Positions 5,450-50,644 of a stretch of 64,000 nt of DNA are shown here, in pieces. The translations under genes and the position numbers were made by a program. Below the pieces are notes generated by a model, which was given only the letters and a program-made list of their open reading frames with translations, did no database searches and had not been told where the DNA came from. Source of the stretch: Eledone cirrhosa (taxonomy: Eukaryota); NCBI GenBank assembly GCA_964016885.1, contig OZ024742.1:89900001-89964000 (forward strand). The letters are read 5' to 3'. Each line of letters starts with the position of its first letter. Position 1 is the stretch's first letter.

Positions 5450-5593
5450 CATGGAACTCCTTTAACCATCTTTTGATCTTATATTACGTATACTCCAGTC
5501 CTACAAACTGTAGAGTGCTTCTTATCCGATATCTGCATTGCTTTATTGTACTACAATAAAACTCACCTCCTACATTAACTTGCTCCTTAACGG

Positions 5594-8055
5594 TTGAGCG
5601 CTTACTCTCATATTGGATACCTTTTGATGGTCTTTTACCTCTTCTTCTACAACACGGATTATTACAACATAACCAATTCAACTAAAGACATTCCTATACC
5701 TGGTAAATCTGAATTCACCAAACTTCTTATTGAAAAAACTGACTCCTTCATAAGAAGACTTAGATGGACAGCCTATTTCTATGACCAGCGCCTAAAAGGG
5801 AACTTCCATACCAAAGAACATAACTTCCTCGATCATCTATTTAATTCTAGACGAAATCCTCCTTCCAACAAAAATCTAGTACAATTCGAGGAAGAATTAA
5901 CTGAAATAATAAAAAATCTTAAATTCAAGAGATACCCTTACAAAGGACAAGAGCACCTTGTAAATCTCAAGAACACAATTTCTAACCTAAATTCCTCAAA
6001 AAATGTTTTAGTCCACTCTGACAAAACCAATAACTTATATGGTATTTCCAAGGATAATTATAACAACCTTATCCTAAAGGAACTAAGGAAAAAGTATCGT
6101 AAAACCAACCATGAAAATTTAGAATACATAAACCTTGAAGCCTCTGAGATTATGTCAAAACTTAGCATTGAAAAAAAGACCGAACCATTCCTCCCAAGGT
6201 CTCCGAGGATAAATCTCAAGGATCACAAAAACAATTTTCGCACTGAACTACCTGTTAGATTAATCGCCCCCTCTAAATCTGATCTGGGGGTTGTTAGTAA
6301 AGCCATCTTGGATAGAATTATCCCACAGGTTAGTTCTAATTGCTCTTCTTTGAACTTAAATTTATGGTTTGGTACTTCTGAAGTGATTGGCTGGTTCAAC
6401 AAATTGGATAATAAAAACAAACTAAAATTTATTCAATTTGATATTGCCAGCTACTATTCCTCCATTTCGCCTTCACTTCTCAATAATGCTCTATCTTTCG
6501 CACTTAAATATGCTGACATCACCACAGATGAACTTCACATCATCCTCGCCGCACGTAAAACCATCCTAGAGTTCAACAACGAATATTGGACCAGAGCCGA
6601 TACCTCTAACAACTTCGACATCACAATGGGAGCATCCGATTCATCCCAATTGACTGATTTAATTGGTATCTTTATTTTGAACTCTTTGAGTCGGAAAATT
6701 CCTCAACTTCGCGGTGGAATTTATCGTGACGATGGACTCTTTACTATCTTAAATTGCAATATAGTTAACCTTAATATTATTAAGAACAATATACGTAATC
6801 TCTTTAACCAACATAACCTAAAAATTAAATTTGATAATAGTATCAAACTAGCTAATTTCTTGGATGTATCTCTTAATCTTGACACTGGCCTATATTACCC
6901 TTACCATAAGAACATGAGAACCTAAATTATGTTAACTTTAAATCTAACCATCCTACCAATATCAAGAATGCTATAGTTAGTAATATTGGAAAAAGAATAT
7001 CTAACATATCTTCTAATAAAAACATCTTTGATGCTAACGCCAATTACTATAATAACGCACTTTCTAAAGCCGGCTATCCAGATAAAATCAAATATAGTAA
7101 AGAAACAAATTCTAGAAAAACTTACAGTAGAATAATTAATCATGATCATTCCAATAATTTTAATAAAAGACCTAGATACAAAAACATAATCTGGTATAAT
7201 GCTCCTTTCTCCATCTCTATTAATAACAATATTCCTAAATTATTTTTTAGTGCCTTAAATAAATGCTTCTCTCCCTCACATATCTATAGTAAAATATTTA
7301 ACAAACACACCATCAAATTTTCTTATTCTACATCCTCCAATATTTCCAACATCATCTCTAAACACAACAATAAAATACTAAATACTAAATCTCTTCCTTC
7401 CAACATTGAATTTCATAATAACAGTAATAATACTCCCGACGTCATTGTAAACCCTAGGCTAACTTCTGTAAACCCAAATACAACGTCAAACACAACTTCG
7501 CTAAATGTTCATAATCCAACTCTAAATCAAGAAACTATTATTCCTATTATTCCTATCGCAAACAACTTCTCCAATCCAATTCCTTCTATAGATAACACTA
7601 GGTCACTCATTAATAATCTCTCTAATTGCAACTACCGCATTAAAAATAAATGTCCTCTCAACAACCATTGTCTTGATAAAAACTTAATTTATGAATGTAA
7701 AGTTATAACTAGCACCAATTCCTTCACCTATTTTGGCTCCACTTCCACCTCTTTTAAAGCTCGTCTCTATAATCACCATTCATCTTTCAAATACAAACTT
7801 AAAAGAACCAACACGGCTCTCTCAGCACTCATATGGTCCTTGAAAGACAAAAACATTAAATATACCATCTTTTGGAAGAAGGTTTCTTCTGCATCCTCAT
7901 ACTTGAACAGCTCTCTATCTAAAATCTGTAATCTCTGCCTAAATGAAAAATTTACCATTATCTCTAATCTAGATTCTATAATAAATAGACGTACAGATTT
8001 GTTTTCTATCTGCCTGCATAAATTCCATAGGACTTTTCACAAAGTATACAGTTAA
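5594..8055 (+). pseudogene. Penelope-like RT-GIY-YIG polyprotein with one frameshift near 6913
   Basis: Motifs STKDIPIP, FIRRLRW, QFDIASYY, ITMGA, YRDD and FLDV. A second frame is open 6916-8055 with SNHP, WYNAPF, IYECK..YFGST, CNLCLNEK and CLH. The first ATG is at 5627. Confidence 0.9.
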
Positions 8056-35965: not shown

Positions 35966-41530
<5,565 letters not shown>

Positions 41531-41903: not shown

Positions 41904-44900
41904 GCTATTTATAACATACTTGACCTCCTTTTCAACCCAAGAGACACATAAAACATATGCGCATATTGATCAACAGTGGGGCGATATTCATCAAATGAAA
42001 TAGCATGGCAATTTACATATAAAGTGTTACATGATAAAAATAAAATAAAATAAAAGCAAGAGTGAAAATAAGAGTGAAAATAAAGATAAACATGAAGCGT
42101 TGGCAGTCTATGAAGATAAAGCAAGAGGAAAGCTTAGAGTAGTCAGTGCATGAAGCAATCTCCCGTGTAGCATGCACGCTTGTCTTATCTATACATGATT
42201 AGAGTGCGTCAGAATGATATTTGCAGGGTCAGGCAGTTGAAGCAGGCAATCGATCTTATTATATAGGCTGAATTATTAAGTAGTTTATTCTCATACATCT
42301 GTATGATATACAGTCTCGGATGCGGGGGAACACCAAAATATCAAAAACCTTCAACATACTATAAACCTTATTGTATCGTAGGCAAGGTCGTACCACTGTC
42401 CTTGCTCACACCACCACTCACATAATCCATGAGACGCAATATATATATAGAGAACACGCGTCTATCGTATAATTCGCAGTGGTTCAGCATATAGTCAAGC
42501 TATAAACCGTATCCAGTCGGTTCTTAATTAATATATCATGCTGTCCAAGTTCCGGAAGTGTCTGAATAATTAAGGGGAATTAATGCGTAAGGGGAGGTAA
42601 CTAGCTAGTTATTTTAGTTACATTACTATGCTAAACTACATTAATGGTGATTCAAATACGTGCCTATCATGTGAAGTTATAACTAATATCTAGAGTATGG
42701 TACCCATTTATAGGTTAGAGAGTTGTTCATTAAGAAGTACAAGGGTGTATATACTAGGATGATTGCCAACCATTAATTAAGGGGTGTCATATCTGAACGT
42801 TCTATAAGAGGAGTCAGACTCTCAAGTCACTGTTCCATGCAAATGTAATATAACAGTAGGACCTGGTATGGTCCCACTATTATATATGCCACCCGGTAGG
42901 CTCCGGGTCATTGCTTGCCTGCATCTCCAGTAAATCTTCGGTATGGTCCGGAGATCCGATCTCTCATATAAATGCACTAGTCTGGCCATCAGGTAATAGA
43001 CAACCCCCGTCTCAAATATAAATCAATTATGTATCACATCTCCAAGCTAGAGTGGAGTCTATTAATAGGTATTAAAGGAGTCCACATCAAGATGATTACG
43101 AGCATAATTCAATGAACTGATCGCTTACAGTATATAATCACTTAACAATACGATTATCTATCTAATCATCAATCTATCTCTTGGTGGTAATCCATGCACA
43201 GGACTATGCTATCACAACCAGTACCGTGTCCCCAGTTTATAATAATCTTATATTTGTGCAATGCAGAATAAGTAGTCCACGGTCGGGATATCAGTATTAG
43301 AGGTACAAGGGGGTATTCCCAGGGTAGGTGGCACTCAAATGCTGTCAGTATTATCTTTAGAGTATAGAGATGGGTGTGGATGTGAGGTGTAAGGTGTGCT
43401 ACTGATGTTCATTGCTAGGGGTGGTGCCGGTTCCAGTCTGACATTATTATATATAGGGTTTAAAGTTTTGGAACGAGTGTCGGAAGCGGTGTTGGCAATT
43501 TGCCAACACTTCTGATTTTTTATTAAGGAGATTATGTTTAGAGAAGATGATAGTATGGGTCTCTAGTAGACAGAGGTTACAAAATTTATCAGGTGGTTTG
43601 TACGATGTTGCACTACCTACCACTTCCCATTTAAGTGTTTATATTTTATTTTTAGTTTTTAGATAGTGTATGTAGCTAGATAGTGAAGTGGAGTTGGCTA
43701 GACTGTGTTTTTTGAAAGAGTGGAGGTGCGAATTGTATCTAGTTTTGAAGCAGTTAGAATTGGAGCCTATGTAGGTTTCAGAAGAGCTGTTAGTTGTGAC
43801 TGTACATGAGTATATGATATCCTTGGTTAAGCATTTTTTATCTAAAGGGCAGGTTCTACTTGATCTACAGTTACAATTACTCTGGGTGCTAGTCTGCCGG
43901 TTACTATGCTGTGTAGAAGTTTGGAGGTTAGCTATAGGGTTATGGTTATGCGGGTTGTGGTACGCAACGTTAATGTTTACACTAGTGCTATTACTACTAT
44001 TTCCATTGATATTACGGTTATTTGTTATAATGTTACTTTGACTGTTATTTTGAATGTTATTTTGAAGGTTTATCGACCGTTGTGATTTAGTTTGTTGGAA
44101 GTAAGAATTAATTTTTCTTTTATTTGTACTAGCTATGTGGTATGCTAAGTTAGGCGTAGTAGAGTATGAGATCTTAATAGTGTTTTTTGTTTAAAAGGCC
44201 GTGGTACCTGTGGCCGGATGGGAAGTGTTTATCTAGTAGTGAGAAGAAAGCCCTAGGAAGGTTGGTAGAGACGTTTAAATTGAAAGGAGGGTTGAAAAAT
44301 GTATTATTTCTTCTTCTATTTCTGTTTTTTATGTCTGGTGATTTGTTTCCTTTAATGTTCCTATGGTCATTTCTGTGGTGCGGGTTTCTCTTGTTGTTAC
44401 AATTCCTATTAGTGTGTGTGCAGTTGCTATTCTTATTATTAAATTTTCCCATGGACATGTTGTGTGAAATGATGTTGTAGCTATGTGTTTTTGTAGGTAG
44501 GAACTCTATCCCTGTATTATGGCCTGATCTAGCTAATGCCTGATTATAATACTGCGAGTTATTGTTAAATGTGTTTATGTCATAGGATAGATTAGAGATT
44601 CTATTAGATACTCCCTTAGAGATAGAGTTCAATATAGATTTAGGGTGGTTAGACTTGGTATCTACGTAGATGAGTTTTTCATTAGGTTTGTGGAAAGGTG
44701 CATATATCATTGAGTCTAAGTAGAGTGTGGCGTCTAGGAAGTTGACGTTTTTGGTGTGTTTGTCCATGGTAATACTAAGGTTAAAGTTTTTGAATGTTTT
44801 GTGCAATAGTTTTCTAGTCCTTTCTATATTGAATTTTTTATAGTCTATAAGTAGAAGTGCATCGTCGCGATACAAACCACCGCTGAGGTACGGAAGTTCC

Positions 44901-45281
44901 CTGTGGATTAGGTTAAGTAAGTATAGGCCAACCAAATCAGTGACCTGCGCCGAGTCACTAGACCCCATAGTAATGTCGAAGTTGTTTTGCGTATCCTTGC
45001 CGGTCCATAATTGGTCCTCAAAGGTGATTATTGTTTTACGGGCCGCAAGTATGACATCAATCTGGGGTCTAGTCAAGTCACTATTGTCCATGGCCATTAT
45101 AAGTGCCTTATTTAGTAGGATAGGGGAAATAGAGGTGTAGTAAGAGTTGATATCAAATTGGATACATTTTTTATCCTTGTTATCTATGATATTTTTGAAC
45201 CATTCAATCACTTCACCCGTATTTCCCCATTGCCCCAGTGTCTCTTGGGTTGAAAAGGAGGTCAAGTATGTTATAAATAGC

Positions 45282-45328
45282 TGCTCCGAAGAATCCAAAC
45301 CTCGGTTTGGAGGAAACAATTGTAAGCA
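45282..45328 (+). ncRNA. Hammerhead, U4C core variant
   Basis: Inverted copy of 41857-41903, with stem II TCCAAACC/GGTTTGGA. Confidence 0.78.
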
Positions 45329-45534
45329 AATAAATGACTTAAACTGAACTTTGATTACTGTAATCTCTATATAACTGCTCTGTATAACAACGGATGTTAT
45401 TACATTGAGCTATTTATCTTACTGGTAATAGGATAGTAATTAAAGACTATCTCTCACTATTTAGGGTTTGTGTATATATAATATATTATCATCAAAGGTC
45501 TTATTGCATACATAACCATAAATAGTACCCTTAA

Positions 45535-45797: not shown

Positions 45798-45999
45798 TGT
45801 ATACATATTGTTGATGAATCAAGGAGTGGTTCACACTGTTGTTGTCGTTGTTGTTGTTGTTGCTATTGCTGATGTTGTTGTAGCTGTTGTTGTTGTTGTA
45901 GCTGCTGTTGTTGTTGTTGCTGCTGCTGGACAGCATTCGAAGAGAAAACACACCGTAGTTTATCCAAATGTTTATTGATTAATTTAAAAGCAATTAACT

Positions 46000-46144
46000 C
46001 CGGTTAATACATTTACATACATCTATATTATTATATATTTGAACATTGACCGGTTAATACATTTACATACATCTATATTATTATATATTTGAAAATTGAC
46101 CGGTTAATACATTTACATACATCTATATTATTATATATTTGAAA
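46000..46144 (+). repeat. Three 50-bp tandem repeats in the LINE 5' UTR
   Basis: ccggttaatacatttacatacatctatattattatatatttgaa starts at 46000, 46050 and 46100. Confidence 0.9.
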
Positions 46145-46404
46145 CCACGTGTTTTCGAACTTGTGAGTACATTTTCCTTTAACTACAAATTATTATTATA
46201 TACTTTCGTCTTTTCATTAACTTAATTAATTTCAAATTACCAGAATATACATATATATATATATATATACTCATATTTATATATATACTCTTCTCACTCA
46301 CACACAAGAAAAACAAAAAACAAAAATAAATCAAAAATAAATTTAAAAAAAAATATATATATATTGAAATACTTAACTAAAACACACACACACTCAAAAC
46401 TAGA

Positions 46405-47516
46405 ATGGCTAACCAGCAAAAATCCAAACAGAACTGGTCTGATAATGAAATCGACATTCTAATAAACACATGGCATTGCCTTTCCCAAACAGAAGATATA
46501 GATGCTTCATCTCTGAACGACATTGCTAAACGTACAGTTCAATTTTTGAAAACTCGATCTGAACAACAGATTCAAAATAAATTAAAGCAAATCGAAATTG
46601 CTTTTAAATTAATCAATAAACATTTGGATAAACTACGGTGTGTTTTCTCTTCGAATGCTGTCCAGCAGCAGCAACAACAACAACAGCAGCTACAACAACA
46701 ACAACAGCTACAACAACAACATCAGCAACAGCAACAACAACAACAACGACAACAACAGTGTGAACCACTCCTTGATTCATCAACAATGGCCGATCTACTA
46801 AATGAAACTATTGACCCCCCCCAGTAGCCTCTGTCTCACAGCATGAAACGCCACATCCTTTCTCTGGCCCAGTAGTCCAATCATCACCTCTGCCTACTAC
46901 TACTACTACTACTACAACATTTTTGTCTACTGCTATGTCAAGGAATTTACCTTCTAATACAGTCCACAAAGGTCGTCAAATCCTACCCAAACCATCATCT
47001 ACACCTCTCACAGCACACACACCCACATACCCACCCACTCGAAACCCCATCATTTGCCGCTACTCTCTACGCTATAGAATATGTACGGATAGTGGCTGCA
47101 AATTCACCCATTTACCTAGGACAAAACGATCTATCCCCACAAACAGCCACCACCATAATACATACTCTAATTTAACACCAACACAACCACCAATAACTCA
47201 AACAAGGAATCCACAAATCTGCCGTTTTTCCCTGCGAGACAGATTGTGTTTAGACCGGGATTGTCCCTTTACCCATCTCCCGGGGACCCGTCGGACAAAT
47301 GAAAATAAAATTAAAAATAAAAGCAAAAACAAAAACCATAACCTACATAAAAATAACCACTACCACAGTCACCAACAGTCTTCTAAACAGGAAACTTCTT
47401 CCTCTTTTTTAGCCATAATGAATCTGGCAAAAGAACTGGAAAAAAACATTCGAGCTATCACCCAGCACCACCCTCCACTATCACCCCACTGCACAAACTC
47501 CCATTGCTGCCATTAA
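46405..47516 (+). CDS. LINE ORF1: Myb/SANT-like domain, poly-Q and two CCCH zinc fingers, broken by a -1 shift in a C8 run (46815-46822)
   Basis: NWSDNEIDILINTW..RSEQQIQNKLKQI, CRYSLRYRICTDSGCKFTH and CRFSLRDRLCLDRDCPFTH. The -1 frame is open from 46815. Confidence 0.75.
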
Positions 47517-50500
47517 CAAACAAACAAATTAACAACACACCAAAACAATTAAAACCATCCACTCTCGCCTCTACATTTTTGCTTAACGCCCAAGGCATCA
47601 GCCCTTCCACCAATACTCAAAAATGGAAGATCAAATTCCTGGAGGACTGGATTGATGTCCATCCAAACCACATCCCTTTCTTCGTCCTCACTGAAACCCA
47701 TCTCAGTAACCTCCACTTGGAAGCCGAGGTGAAAGTGAAAAATTTCAAAGCCATCCGTGCTGATCGCGCTGGCAGAAGAAAGGGCGGAACTGCCATTTAT
47801 GTCCATAATTCTTTCTCAACAGAGGCTATGAACATATTCACTAATGGATACTGTGAAGCAGTCACTGTATTCAGTCAAACCAACAACCTATTAGTAGTTG
47901 GGCTCTATAGGCCACCCCAAACGCCTGTACCATGCTTCAAGGAATGCCTCAACAGCATAAAGTGTTTCATCCAAGAGTGTCACCCTGACAACATCTTAAT
48001 GATGGGGGACTTCAACCTCCCCGGAGTTGACTGGTCCACAAACAGCCTGCCACCAGGTTCTTCTGCCTCAACCTCTGACAGGGAAGCTGTGGAATCGCTT
48101 CTTGACTTCATGGATGATTTCTTCCTATCCCAACTGGTGCTCGAACCAACGAGGTGCCACAAAAACGTCCTAGACTTAATTTTCAGCAATCACACTGACA
48201 ATATCCACAATATTGCAGTGGAGAAAACTCTACTCTCTGATCATGACATGGTTCTCTGTGATCTGAGATTCCACCGTCCAATATGCAAACCCAATGTCAT
48301 CTCTCCTGTCCATCCGTTTGACGCTATGGATTTCCACAATGCAAACTGGGAAGCGATCAGTCATGATCTTGCACATGTCGACTGGTCCTTCACGCACACT
48401 CATACACCCACTAACATCAAAAAGTCCTGGCAGACATTTGTGGACACTGTTACAAACATATGTGCTAAACACACCCCATTAAGAACTATAAACAAATCTA
48501 AGAGCAGAATCCCTAGAAATAGAAAAACGCTCATCAGAAACATTAAGAGAACGAACAAAAAAATCAACAAGCTGAAATACTGTCAGCAGCAACACATCAA
48601 CGTGACTGCCATTTCATCACTAGAGATTAAAAAACATAACCTCCAAAACAACATAATGTCCCTCATCAACAATCAGAGAAGAGCTGAAGAGGCCTGGGCC
48701 ATTGAGAAGATCAAACTCAATCCCAAAGTGTTCTTTTCATTTGCAAAAAAACACAAAATCACTGGCTCTACTGTTGGCCCTCTAATTGATGAAAATGGCA
48801 CTCTTCAAGACAATGCTAAAACCATGGGTGAGATACTGCAGAAACAATACTGCTCTGTTTTCAGCAATCCTGATATGGCCGATCTGGGCTGTATCGGCGA
48901 TGTTACTCCCCATTACACCTTATCGGACATAACGTTTGGCGCCCCTGATGTCTTGGCGGCAATAAAGGAAATCAAGCATAATTCAGCAGTAGGTCCCGAT
49001 AGGTTCCCTGCTTGTGTCTTGAAGGCGTGTCAACACCAACTTGCATCTCCTCTTGCCAATCTGTGGCGGAACTCACTGGATGCTGGATATGTGCCAGAAA
49101 ACCTTCTATCCCAGTCTGTTGTCCCAGTTTTCAAAAAGGGAAACAAATCCCTTGCCGTGAATTACCGTCCAATCTCACTCACCTCTCATATCATTAAGGT
49201 ATTTGAGCGAGTGGTGAGATCGCGAATGACCCACTTCCTTGAGAGTAACAATATGCTGAACTCCAACCAGCATGGATTCCGTAATGGAAGGGATTGCCTG
49301 ACGCAGCTACTGCATCACTTTGATGACATTTTGAGAGCCTTGGGAGAGGGTTCCAACACTGATGTTATCTACCTTGATTTCAGCAAGGCCTTTGACAGGG
49401 TTGATCATAACATTCTACTGAGAAAGCTGTCCAATATTGGTGTCACTGGAAAGCTGCTGCAGTGGATCAAGAGCTTCCTGTCAAACAGAACCCAACATGT
49501 TGTAGTTGAGGGAGTCAAATCAAGCCCAGCCAAAGTCAGTAGTGGGGTCCCACAAGGCACTGTGTTGGGCCCACTTCTCTTCATCATCTATATTAATGAC
49601 ATCACTGACATCATCAAACACAGCAACATTAAAATTTTCGCTGATGATTCCAAGCTCCAAAAGGTCATCAATGGCGTGGATGACCGGATAAGCCTTCAGT
49701 CAGACCTACTGGCTGTTACCCAATGGGCAGAAAAGAACAACATGTTACTGAACGAAGACAAATTCGAACTGATCCACTTTGGAAAAGAGGATGCTCTGAA
49801 ACTCCCGTACTCCCTTCCCTCCGGGGAAACTCTCGTGGCATCTAACAACATCAGAGACTTGGGAGTAACCGTGGACAGCAACATAAGCTGGACCACGCAT
49901 ATAAGCAGCAAAGTTGACATGGCCCGCAGAATGTGTTCCTGGATCCTCAGAACCTTCCAGTCGAGAGATTCCCGCACCATTATCCTTCTCTTCTCTACTT
50001 TCGCCCGACCACACCTTGAATACTGTTGTCCACTGTGGTCTCCCCACACGAAACAAAGTATCATGAAACTTGAAGCTCCTCAAAGGGCAATCACGAAAAA
50101 GATAGATGGCATGTCAGACCTTGACTACTGGGGTCGATTAGAAAACCTGAAACTTTACTCACTCCAACGTCGCCGTGAGCGTTATATTATCCGCATGATG
50201 TGGAAAATGTTCCATCATCACTGCCCAAATGATGTTGGCATCGCCTTCAAGATACACCCAAGGCTTGGGCCCCGTGCTATCCGTCCCATTCAAAAATCTA
50301 AATCGCAACTAATAACAACAATACGGCACAATTATTTCACCTCAATCGGCCCTGCTCTCTTCAACATCACACCAGGACACGTCAAAACAGAAACTGACCA
50401 CACAAAATTCAAGAAGTCTTTGGACAAATTCCTCCAGGTAATCCCGGACAAACCACCCACACCCGGATATGTCTCCGCAAACAGTAATTCTCTTCTCGAA

Positions 50501-50524
50501 TGGGCCATGGTGCCCAAATCCTGA
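47387..50524 (+). CDS. LINE ORF2: APE endonuclease plus reverse transcriptase, uninterrupted
   Basis: LTETHL, YRPP, GDFN, LDL, SDH; NYRPISL, QHGFR, LDFSKAFD, GVPQG, FADD. The frame opens at 47387 with no ATG before the endonuclease domain. Confidence 0.95.
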   Translation, partial: TGNFFLFFSHNESGKRTGKKHSSYHPAPPSTITPLHKLPLLPLTNKQINNTPKQLKPSTLASTFLLNAQGISPSTNTQKWKIKFLEDWIDVHPNHIPFFVLTETHLSNLHLEAEVKVKNFKAIRADRAGRRKGGTAIYVHNSFSTEAMNIFTNGYCEAVTVFSQTNNLLVVGLYRPPQTPVPCFKECLNSIKCFIQECHPDNILMMGDFNLPGVDWSTNSLPPGSSASTSDREAVESLLDFMDDFFLSQLVLEPTRCHKNVLDLIFSNHTDNIHNIAVEKTLLSDHDMVLCDLRFHRPICKPNVISPVHPFDAMDFHNANWEAISHDLAHVDWSFTHTHTPTNIKKSWQTFVDTVTNICAKHTPLRTINKSKSRIPRNRKTLIRNIKRTNKKINKLKYCQQQHINVTAISSLEIKKHNLQNNIMSLINNQRRAEEAWAIEKIKLNPKVFFSFAKKHKITGSTVGPLIDENGTLQDNAKTMGEILQKQYCSVFSNPDMADLGCIGDVTPHYTLSDITFGAPDVLAAIKEIKHNSAVGPDRFPACVLKACQHQLASPLANLWRNSLDAGYVPENLLSQSVVPVFKKGNKSLAVNYRPISLTSHIIKVFERVVRSRMTHFLESNNMLNSNQHGFRNGRDCLTQLLHHFDDILRALGEGSNTDVIYLDFSKAFDRVDHNILLRKLSNIGVTGKLLQWIKSFLSNRTQHVVVEGVKSSPAKVSSGVPQGTVLGPLLFIIYINDITDIIKHSNIKIFADDSKLQKVINGVDDRISLQSDLLAVTQWAEKNNMLLNEDKFELIHFGKEDALKLPYSLPSGETLVASNNIRDLGVTVDSNISWTTHISSKVDMARRMCSWILRTFQSRDSRTIILLFSTFARPHLEYCCPLWSPHTKQSIMKLEAPQRAITKKIDGMSDLDYWGRLENLKLYSLQRRRERYIIRMMWKMFHHHCPNDVGIAFKIHPRLGPRAIRPIQKSKSQLITTIRHNYFTSIGPALFNITPGHVKTETDHTKFKKSLDKFLQVIPDKPPTPGYVSANSNSLLEWAMVPKS

Positions 50525-50609
50525 ATTGAAAGACTTCGCCAGGTGGTGCTATTAAGTTAGACATGGCCTGGGCCAATACTGGCCAAAACATTTCAAAGTT
50601 ATTCAAAGT

Positions 50610-50644
<35 letters not shown>

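Follow-up and report, generated by a model that had tools for sequence, protein, structure and literature searches.

In the LINE analysed here, ORF2 is probably expressed by a -1 ribosomal frameshift at the heptamer U UUU UUA, which would give a fusion of ORF1 with the endonuclease (EN) and the reverse transcriptase (RT); the slip, its rate and the fusion product are what we infer from the sequence. The observations behind it are that ORF2 overlaps the end of ORF1 in the -1 frame, that the heptamer sits in ORF1 phase, that no ATG of the ORF2 frame precedes the endonuclease and that the site is conserved: across the junctions of eight LINE families no block other than TTTTTTAG is invariant, and it is always in phase. 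The most likely interpretation is that of a known mechanism in a new setting, a conserved slip site in CR1-type LINEs. Most ribosomes would stay in frame 0 and add the C-terminal helix before terminating 36 codons further on, producing an excess of ORF1 protein, and a minority would slip back one base on U UUU UUA, pass through a low-complexity linker of 60-217 residues and continue into the endonuclease and RT. In intact copies of the family (family A, see below) the ORF1-EN-RT fusion would be ca. 1,390 aa long.

The element and its family

The LINE occupies approximately positions 46405-50610 of the window (the whole stretch of 64,000 nt that was analysed), and its parts are listed in Table 1. 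The N-terminus of ORF1 resembles the Pfam model PF13837 with an E value of 6e-4, which is below the cut-off of that model, and a search with the ORF1 protein found no real relatives (best E 0.046). A 3' tail of short tandem repeats and a stem-loop in the 3' UTR are features of the CR1 group. The window LINE has a tandem-repeat tail, a predicted 3' UTR stem-loop and an ORF2 with APE endonuclease and RT; two adjacent 3' UTR hairpins are predicted in four of the families described below (A, B, C and L122), with similar folds and different sequences. The label "CR1-type" for its clade is in part our assumption, and our trees hold no named reference CR1 elements. An assignment to Zenon, which PMC13343379 defines by a missing ORF1 and a poly-A tail, was rejected, since the element has both an ORF1 and a tandem-repeat tail. 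Upstream of ORF1 there are three tandem copies of a unit of ca. 50 bp (window ca. 45998-46145).

The first-pass annotation of this DNA had described a 130-nt overlap in the -1 frame, a first ATG inside the endonuclease after the TETHL motif, and two heptamers in exact ORF1 phase. All of this holds: ORF2 extends from stop to stop over 47387-50524 and the ORF1 frame ends at 47516, the ATG (47828) comes after TETHL (47690), and both TTTTTTA (47405-47411) and AAAAAAC (47441-47447) are in phase. This first Met of the ORF2 frame lies 141 codons 3' of the U UUU UUA heptamer, beyond both NAQG and TETHL, so that initiation there would yield a protein with an incomplete endonuclease. A heptamer in the phase of the upstream ORF and inside a -1 overlap is what is expected of a -1 frameshift site. 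Heptamers of the form X XXY YYZ are common (20 within 46405-50524), so that the case rests on conservation and not on the presence of one heptamer in the overlap.

We searched the genome (3.0 Gb) for family A, the family of the window LINE itself. For the region 47300-47750, the best 40 of 1219 candidates were 100% identical. The junction pattern of the family was found in 584 genomic copies, with TTTTTTA kept in 100 of the 100 copies listed, and 16 copies had an extra A in the downstream A run, by which the frames are fused. The conservation of heptamer and phase that the first-pass annotation had asked of family members is thus present, in all the listed copies of family A and across the eight families, and siblings with a single fused ORF, which would count against the slip, are rare next to the 584 normal junctions.

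The ORF1 of the window copy ends after 140 aa owing to a run of eight C's. In a survey of 30 loci the run was C6 in 17 others and C8 in one, the window copy, the pattern being unmatched in the remaining 12. ORF1 extends for 383-395 aa to the same stop in 10 of the 13 loci that reach its ATG. A second programmed shift at the C run was considered and rejected, because C8 is a mutation of the window copy only. This copy is unable to use the slip site because its ORF1 stops upstream; given the intact ORF1s of its siblings and the conserved junction, we regard the overlap as the working design of family A and the window copy as a damaged member.

Table 1. Features of the window LINE (window coordinates) and loci of the second junction type.
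Feature	Position	Strand	Basis or remark
ORF1: Myb/SANT-like N-terminus, poly-Q, two CCCH-type fingers, C-terminal FL..L.KE helix-like motif	46405..47516	+	broken copy; intact siblings 383-395 aa
C8 run breaking ORF1	46815..46822	+	specific to this copy; 17/18 pattern-matching loci have C6
ORF1 3' frame	46815-47516	+	reading-frame list
CCCH-type finger 1 (C-x8-C-x4-C-x3-H)	47055..47111	+	label from sequence, without Pfam hit
CCCH-type finger 2	47220..47276	+	sequence
ORF1/ORF2 overlap, 130 nt, ORF2 in -1	47387..47516	+	reading frames
ORF2, 1045 codons stop to stop: low-complexity linker, endonuclease, reverse transcriptase	47387..50524	+	RT = PF00078, E 4e-31
U UUU UUA G, predicted -1 shift site, ORF1 phase, ORF1 residues F-L	47405..47412	+	conservation
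GCCA...TGGC mini-hairpin, weak, from +1, kept in families A and A2 only	47412..47428	+	folding
A AAA AAC, in ORF1 phase, family A-specific	47441..47447	+	not conserved
APE endonuclease domain of ORF2; NAQG (first-strand motif) 47585, TETHL 47690	47585..48253	+	PF03372, PF14529
First ATG of ORF2 frame, within endonuclease	47828..47830	+	sequence
3' UTR with two predicted local hairpins	50540..50584	+	folding
Tandem-repeat tail, TTCAAAGTT x2, then (TA)n microsatellite	50591..50610	+	sequence
Family D loci	L108 (minus strand), L101, L115, L119, L253, L254		G GGA AAC-TAA junction

A single invariant block in eight families

The eight families are A, A2, B and C from this genome, the last three found by endonuclease-only queries, and L122/L124, L123, L125 and L128 from metagenome contigs. 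Their endonucleases are 27-52% identical between families (69% for A and A2), and in the alignment of the eight junctions TTTTTTAG supplies 8 of the 10 invariant columns. In families B and C, too, ORF2 overlaps in -1 and its endonuclease is preceded by no ATG, and the block is in phase. For B, the overlap is 271 nt, the block is in phase in 25 of 30 loci and the site is kept in 85 of the 100 copies listed out of 214, the heptamer being changed in the other 15. In family C, 17 of 20 loci (19 readable) have the block 6 nt past the last stop of the ORF2 frame, and it is found in 4 of 8 decayed copies of the older family A2. Family C was first met as a truncated copy, and its junction was read from longer ones.

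The metagenome scan gave 75 loci, six of them scoring at least 200 bits on the profile. Five of these six, making up the four metagenome families, have TTTTTTAG in phase within -1 overlaps of 202-742 nt, and the sixth (L121) ends before the junction. Lower scorers near the clade (L127, L129, L131, L133, L135 and L138) are truncated or broken, with unreadable junctions. A U6AG found in L174 was excluded from the count, as it is missing from its closest relative, L166. The eight families form one clade with a support of 98 (FastTree, 20 rows), and the clade is recovered with a support of 97 in a second tree lacking family C and L128; both trees hold only loci fetched in this analysis. The places matched in a search with the CCCH region of L128 were mostly common to family C.

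Only one of the two slip heptamers originally proposed stands up to this comparison. U UUU UUA is conserved in the eight families and A AAA AAC is not, since A2 has G AAA AAC and the heptamer is absent from B, C and the metagenome relatives.

Codon choice and the open -1 frame

In ORF1 the site specifies the residues F-L, with which a conserved helix-like stretch begins. With each element's own codon usage and the ORF1 residues x-F-L given, the chance of NNT TTT TTA is 0.002-0.038 per family; with the ORF1 residues fixed, that of a -1 frame without stops all the way between the site and the end of ORF1 is 0.0008-0.60 per family, and this open-frame test is singly weak in A (0.24) and C (0.60). 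The combined probabilities, ca. 1e-13 over seven families for the codons and ca. 1e-10 for the open frame, are approximate, as they assume independence and saturated synonymous sites and the families share ancestry. Synonymous codon choice explains the conservation of TTTTTTAG poorly, and nucleotide conservation beyond what the protein needs, here in eight families, is another property expected of a -1 frameshift site.

From the site to the ORF1 stop the ORF2 frame is open for 36-201 codons. Going 5' from the site it closes within 6 codons in A, 26 in B, 2 in C, 2 in L122, 5 in L123 and 0 in L128, these being the six intact families with a complete junction (L125 is cut). With the frame open 3' of the site and closed 5' of it, decoding of ORF2 should therefore start at about the heptamer and not after the ORF1 stop. 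There is no Met between the site and the first motif of the endonuclease in seven of the eight families (A2 as read from the translation), the exception being L122, with a Met 14 codons ahead of the motif. Apart from this one Met of L122, the families have the open -1 frame devoid of a separate start that goes with such a site.

Search for a stimulatory structure

No conserved 3' structure was found in A, A2, B, L122, L123, L125 and L128, with fold z-scores from +1.3 to -2.6 in folds computed without pseudoknots. Local folds 3' of the site were unremarkable in A, A2, B, L122 and L128, and only L123 and L125 reached a z of ca. -2.6. In these folds no stable hairpin was seen at the distance of 5-9 nt from the heptamer at which retroviruses have a hairpin or pseudoknot. 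The small GCCA/TGGC hairpin, which the first-pass annotation had noted after the U UUU UUA heptamer, is no better than shuffled sequence (z -0.23, with 78 of 200 shuffles folding as well), lies too near the site (+1) and is conserved only between A and A2, and we have discarded it as a stimulator.

A long-range pairing between the site and the 3' end was also rejected. In family A a 9-bp match between +53 and the 3' UTR beats 51 of 51 control windows. However, in the same test control windows were as good in B (3 of 51), C (11 of 51) and L122 (34 of 51), A2 has an altered 5' partner for which its 3' UTR does not compensate, and the motif is already engaged in a local hairpin. With no 3' RNA element found that could stimulate it, the shift would depend on the U6A run and the sequence around it, which has been suggested for Semliki Forest virus.

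Alternative explanations

Also against a frameshift speaks the G after the heptamer, which is invariant, is not demanded by the X XXY YYZ rule and forms a TAG acceptor pattern. The main alternative, owing to this invariant AG, is that TTTTTTAG is a 3' splice acceptor and that splicing from an upstream donor sets ORF2 in frame. With such an acceptor, too, the phase should be fixed and the ORF2 frame should open close to the site; the AG is inside the invariant block and, in family A, a pyrimidine-rich stretch lies just 5' of it. However, the 20 nt upstream are just 25-65% pyrimidine and contain another AG in six of the eight families, and the six T's, with F-L plus AG imposed, have a chance of 0.008-0.18 per family. 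Genome-wide, the downstream sequence had a base other than T at -5 in one copy, itself 5'-truncated, in a test that is blind to spliced forms with T at -5, and the contigs of runs X1, X2 and X3 (kind unrecorded) showed no joint or listed loose end at the AG; runs X6, X8 and X9 gave no coverage there. The splice-acceptor reading is weakened by these results, and we consider it highly improbable. We see as extremely improbable that the T6 run is a polymerase slippage site, where an extra base acquired in transcription or reverse transcription fuses the frames. HIV reverse transcriptase does yield indels at U6A (part of PMC5737442), single fused-frame genomic copies occur, and 16 copies have an extra A in the A7 run, but fused copies are rare against 584 normal junctions, no indel of the T run was among those listed at a 1% share in the contigs of the three runs, and run length, phase and the next A are all fixed, as a site for tRNA re-pairing predicts.

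Translation of ORF2 might also begin close to the ORF1 stop, by termination-reinitiation or at a non-AUG codon, and the heptamer would then simply follow from the F-L helix that ORF1 encodes. L1 and SART1 are established to take this route (in parts of PMC2881922 and PMC5972666), the ORF1 stop is placed 2-71 nt 5' of the endonuclease start in most families, and in family A the ORF2-frame codons TTG CTG come right before the ORF1 stop. Reinitiation nevertheless seems very unlikely to us: the fixed codons (approximately 1e-13) and the ORF2 frame that is open from the ORF1 stop back to the site (approximately 1e-10) are left unexplained, and no common start codon was seen at the junctions, either in the junction sequences or in the family alignment. 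The ORF1-ORF2 fusion by a -1 slip at U UUU UUA, as predicted in the first-pass annotation, is strongly supported by the conservation of the site in eight diverged families.

Other LINEs and neighbouring elements

Another branch of LINEs in this genome, family D, has an ORF2 of 957 codons with no ATG before the endonuclease and, in six loci, an ORF1 that ends in G GGA AAC followed by TAA, with a -1 overlap of 52 nt. Among the metagenome loci, 43 had a readable ORF2 start and 31 of these an upstream ORF, which was in -1 in 26 (two of them doubtful), in +1 in 2 and in frame in 3; many of these 31 loci are closely related and many have no strict heptamer. A separate clade (L136, L143, L146, L152, L158-L160, L163, L164, L166, L168, L169, L171, L172, L174, L176 and L181) has steady -1 overlaps of 79-283 nt, with A AAA AAC, C CCU UUA or G GAA AAC in some members and no single conserved site. 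In the distant LINE L177 (1221-1228), TTTTTTAG comes directly past the last ORF2-frame stop, in a -1 overlap of 22 nt; this locus is on a long branch and its placement is unsure. Three other loci (L126, L147 and L161) have N-terminal extensions of ORF2 with a motif ending in NPGP, which we take to be 2A-like, followed by a Cys-rich domain.

The window also holds other coding sequences. On the minus strand, 43639-45409 contains two ORFs with YRDD-like and GIY-YIG-like motifs, the longer one without a Pfam hit, suggestive of a broken Penelope-like element, and 37563-38330 encodes a Helitron helicase-like N-terminal domain (PF14214, E 8e-32). At 5591-8055 there are two long overlapping plus-strand ORFs of 444 and 381 codons without a significant Pfam match. 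The summed contig depth of run X2 rises to ca. 10,000 at ca. 47160-47500, against 70-400 on either side; run X3 has no such rise there, and contig depth is a poor measure.

Implications

How ORF2 of LINEs is translated without a start codon is a long-standing question, and the answers have mainly been reinitiation (L1, SART1). A defined and conserved shift site makes the matter testable by one synonymous change. If the frameshift is real, the working enzyme of these abundant elements would be an ORF1-EN-RT fusion, ORF2 annotations that begin at an internal Met would be wrong, engineered versions would need the junction, and there would be one more natural U6A site apparently without a 3' structure. 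We give an even chance to a broader proposal, namely that much of the CR1 group normally makes its RT by a Gag-Pol-like -1 frameshift, using U UUU UUA G without RNA structure in this clade and G GGA AAC directly 5' of the ORF1 stop in another family of this genome. The active enzyme would then have the RNA-binding fingers of ORF1 covalently attached, and the ratio of ORF1 to RT would be set at the ribosome.

Comparison with known systems

Overlapping ORFs were noted in older papers on mosquito CR1-type elements. Our literature search found no description of a slippery site in CR1-group LINEs, Repbase reports, subscription papers and supplements being outside its reach, and the terms "frameshift", "overlap" and "CCCH" are absent from the main text of PMC13343379 and PMC4120745. 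The elements described there are like ours in having APE plus RT in ORF2, an upstream ORF1 and no poly-A tail, and differ in that the ORF1 here has CCCH-type fingers and not an esterase.

The statement of the first-pass annotation that well-studied LINEs use reinitiation is right for human L1 and silkworm SART1 (parts of PMC2881922 and PMC5972666) and does not extend to Dictyostelium TRE5-A and TRE3-A, for which a -1 frameshift is stated to be needed (passages of PMC5911963). L1 and SART1 share with the present elements a bicistronic LINE RNA in which ORF2 depends on the translation of ORF1; in those parts of the two papers they reinitiate after the ORF1 stop and give a free ORF2p, whereas here ORF2 is open far into ORF1 and a fusion is predicted. 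TRE5-A and TRE3-A resemble the present elements in having an APE-RT ORF2 that is said to require a -1 frameshift out of ORF1. They belong to the L1 group and come from amoebae, and the passages of PMC5911963 give neither a slippery sequence nor evidence, whereas the present site is a defined one that is kept across LINE families taken to be from animals. Elsewhere, part of PMC5009743 mentions HeT-A and TART by name and, for mammalian LINEs, prefers initiation, and a +1 shift or reinitiation has been proposed for Paramecium LINEs (part of PMC5405496).

The closest parallels are viral. HIV-1 and alphaviruses shift at U UUU UUA, and there the argument was made from a similar conservation (part of PMC2569925). 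HIV-1 gag-pol and alphavirus 6K/TF have the same heptamer, phase and zero-frame F-L, a site that lies early in the -1 ORF and a conservation that exceeds the needs of the protein (parts of PMC2569925 and PMC5009743). They differ from the present case in that the host here is a LINE, the shift is predicted and no hairpin or pseudoknot was found 5-9 nt downstream; the nearest system is in this respect Semliki Forest virus, which shifts at a U6A site without a 3' structure (parts of PMC5009743 and PMC2569925).
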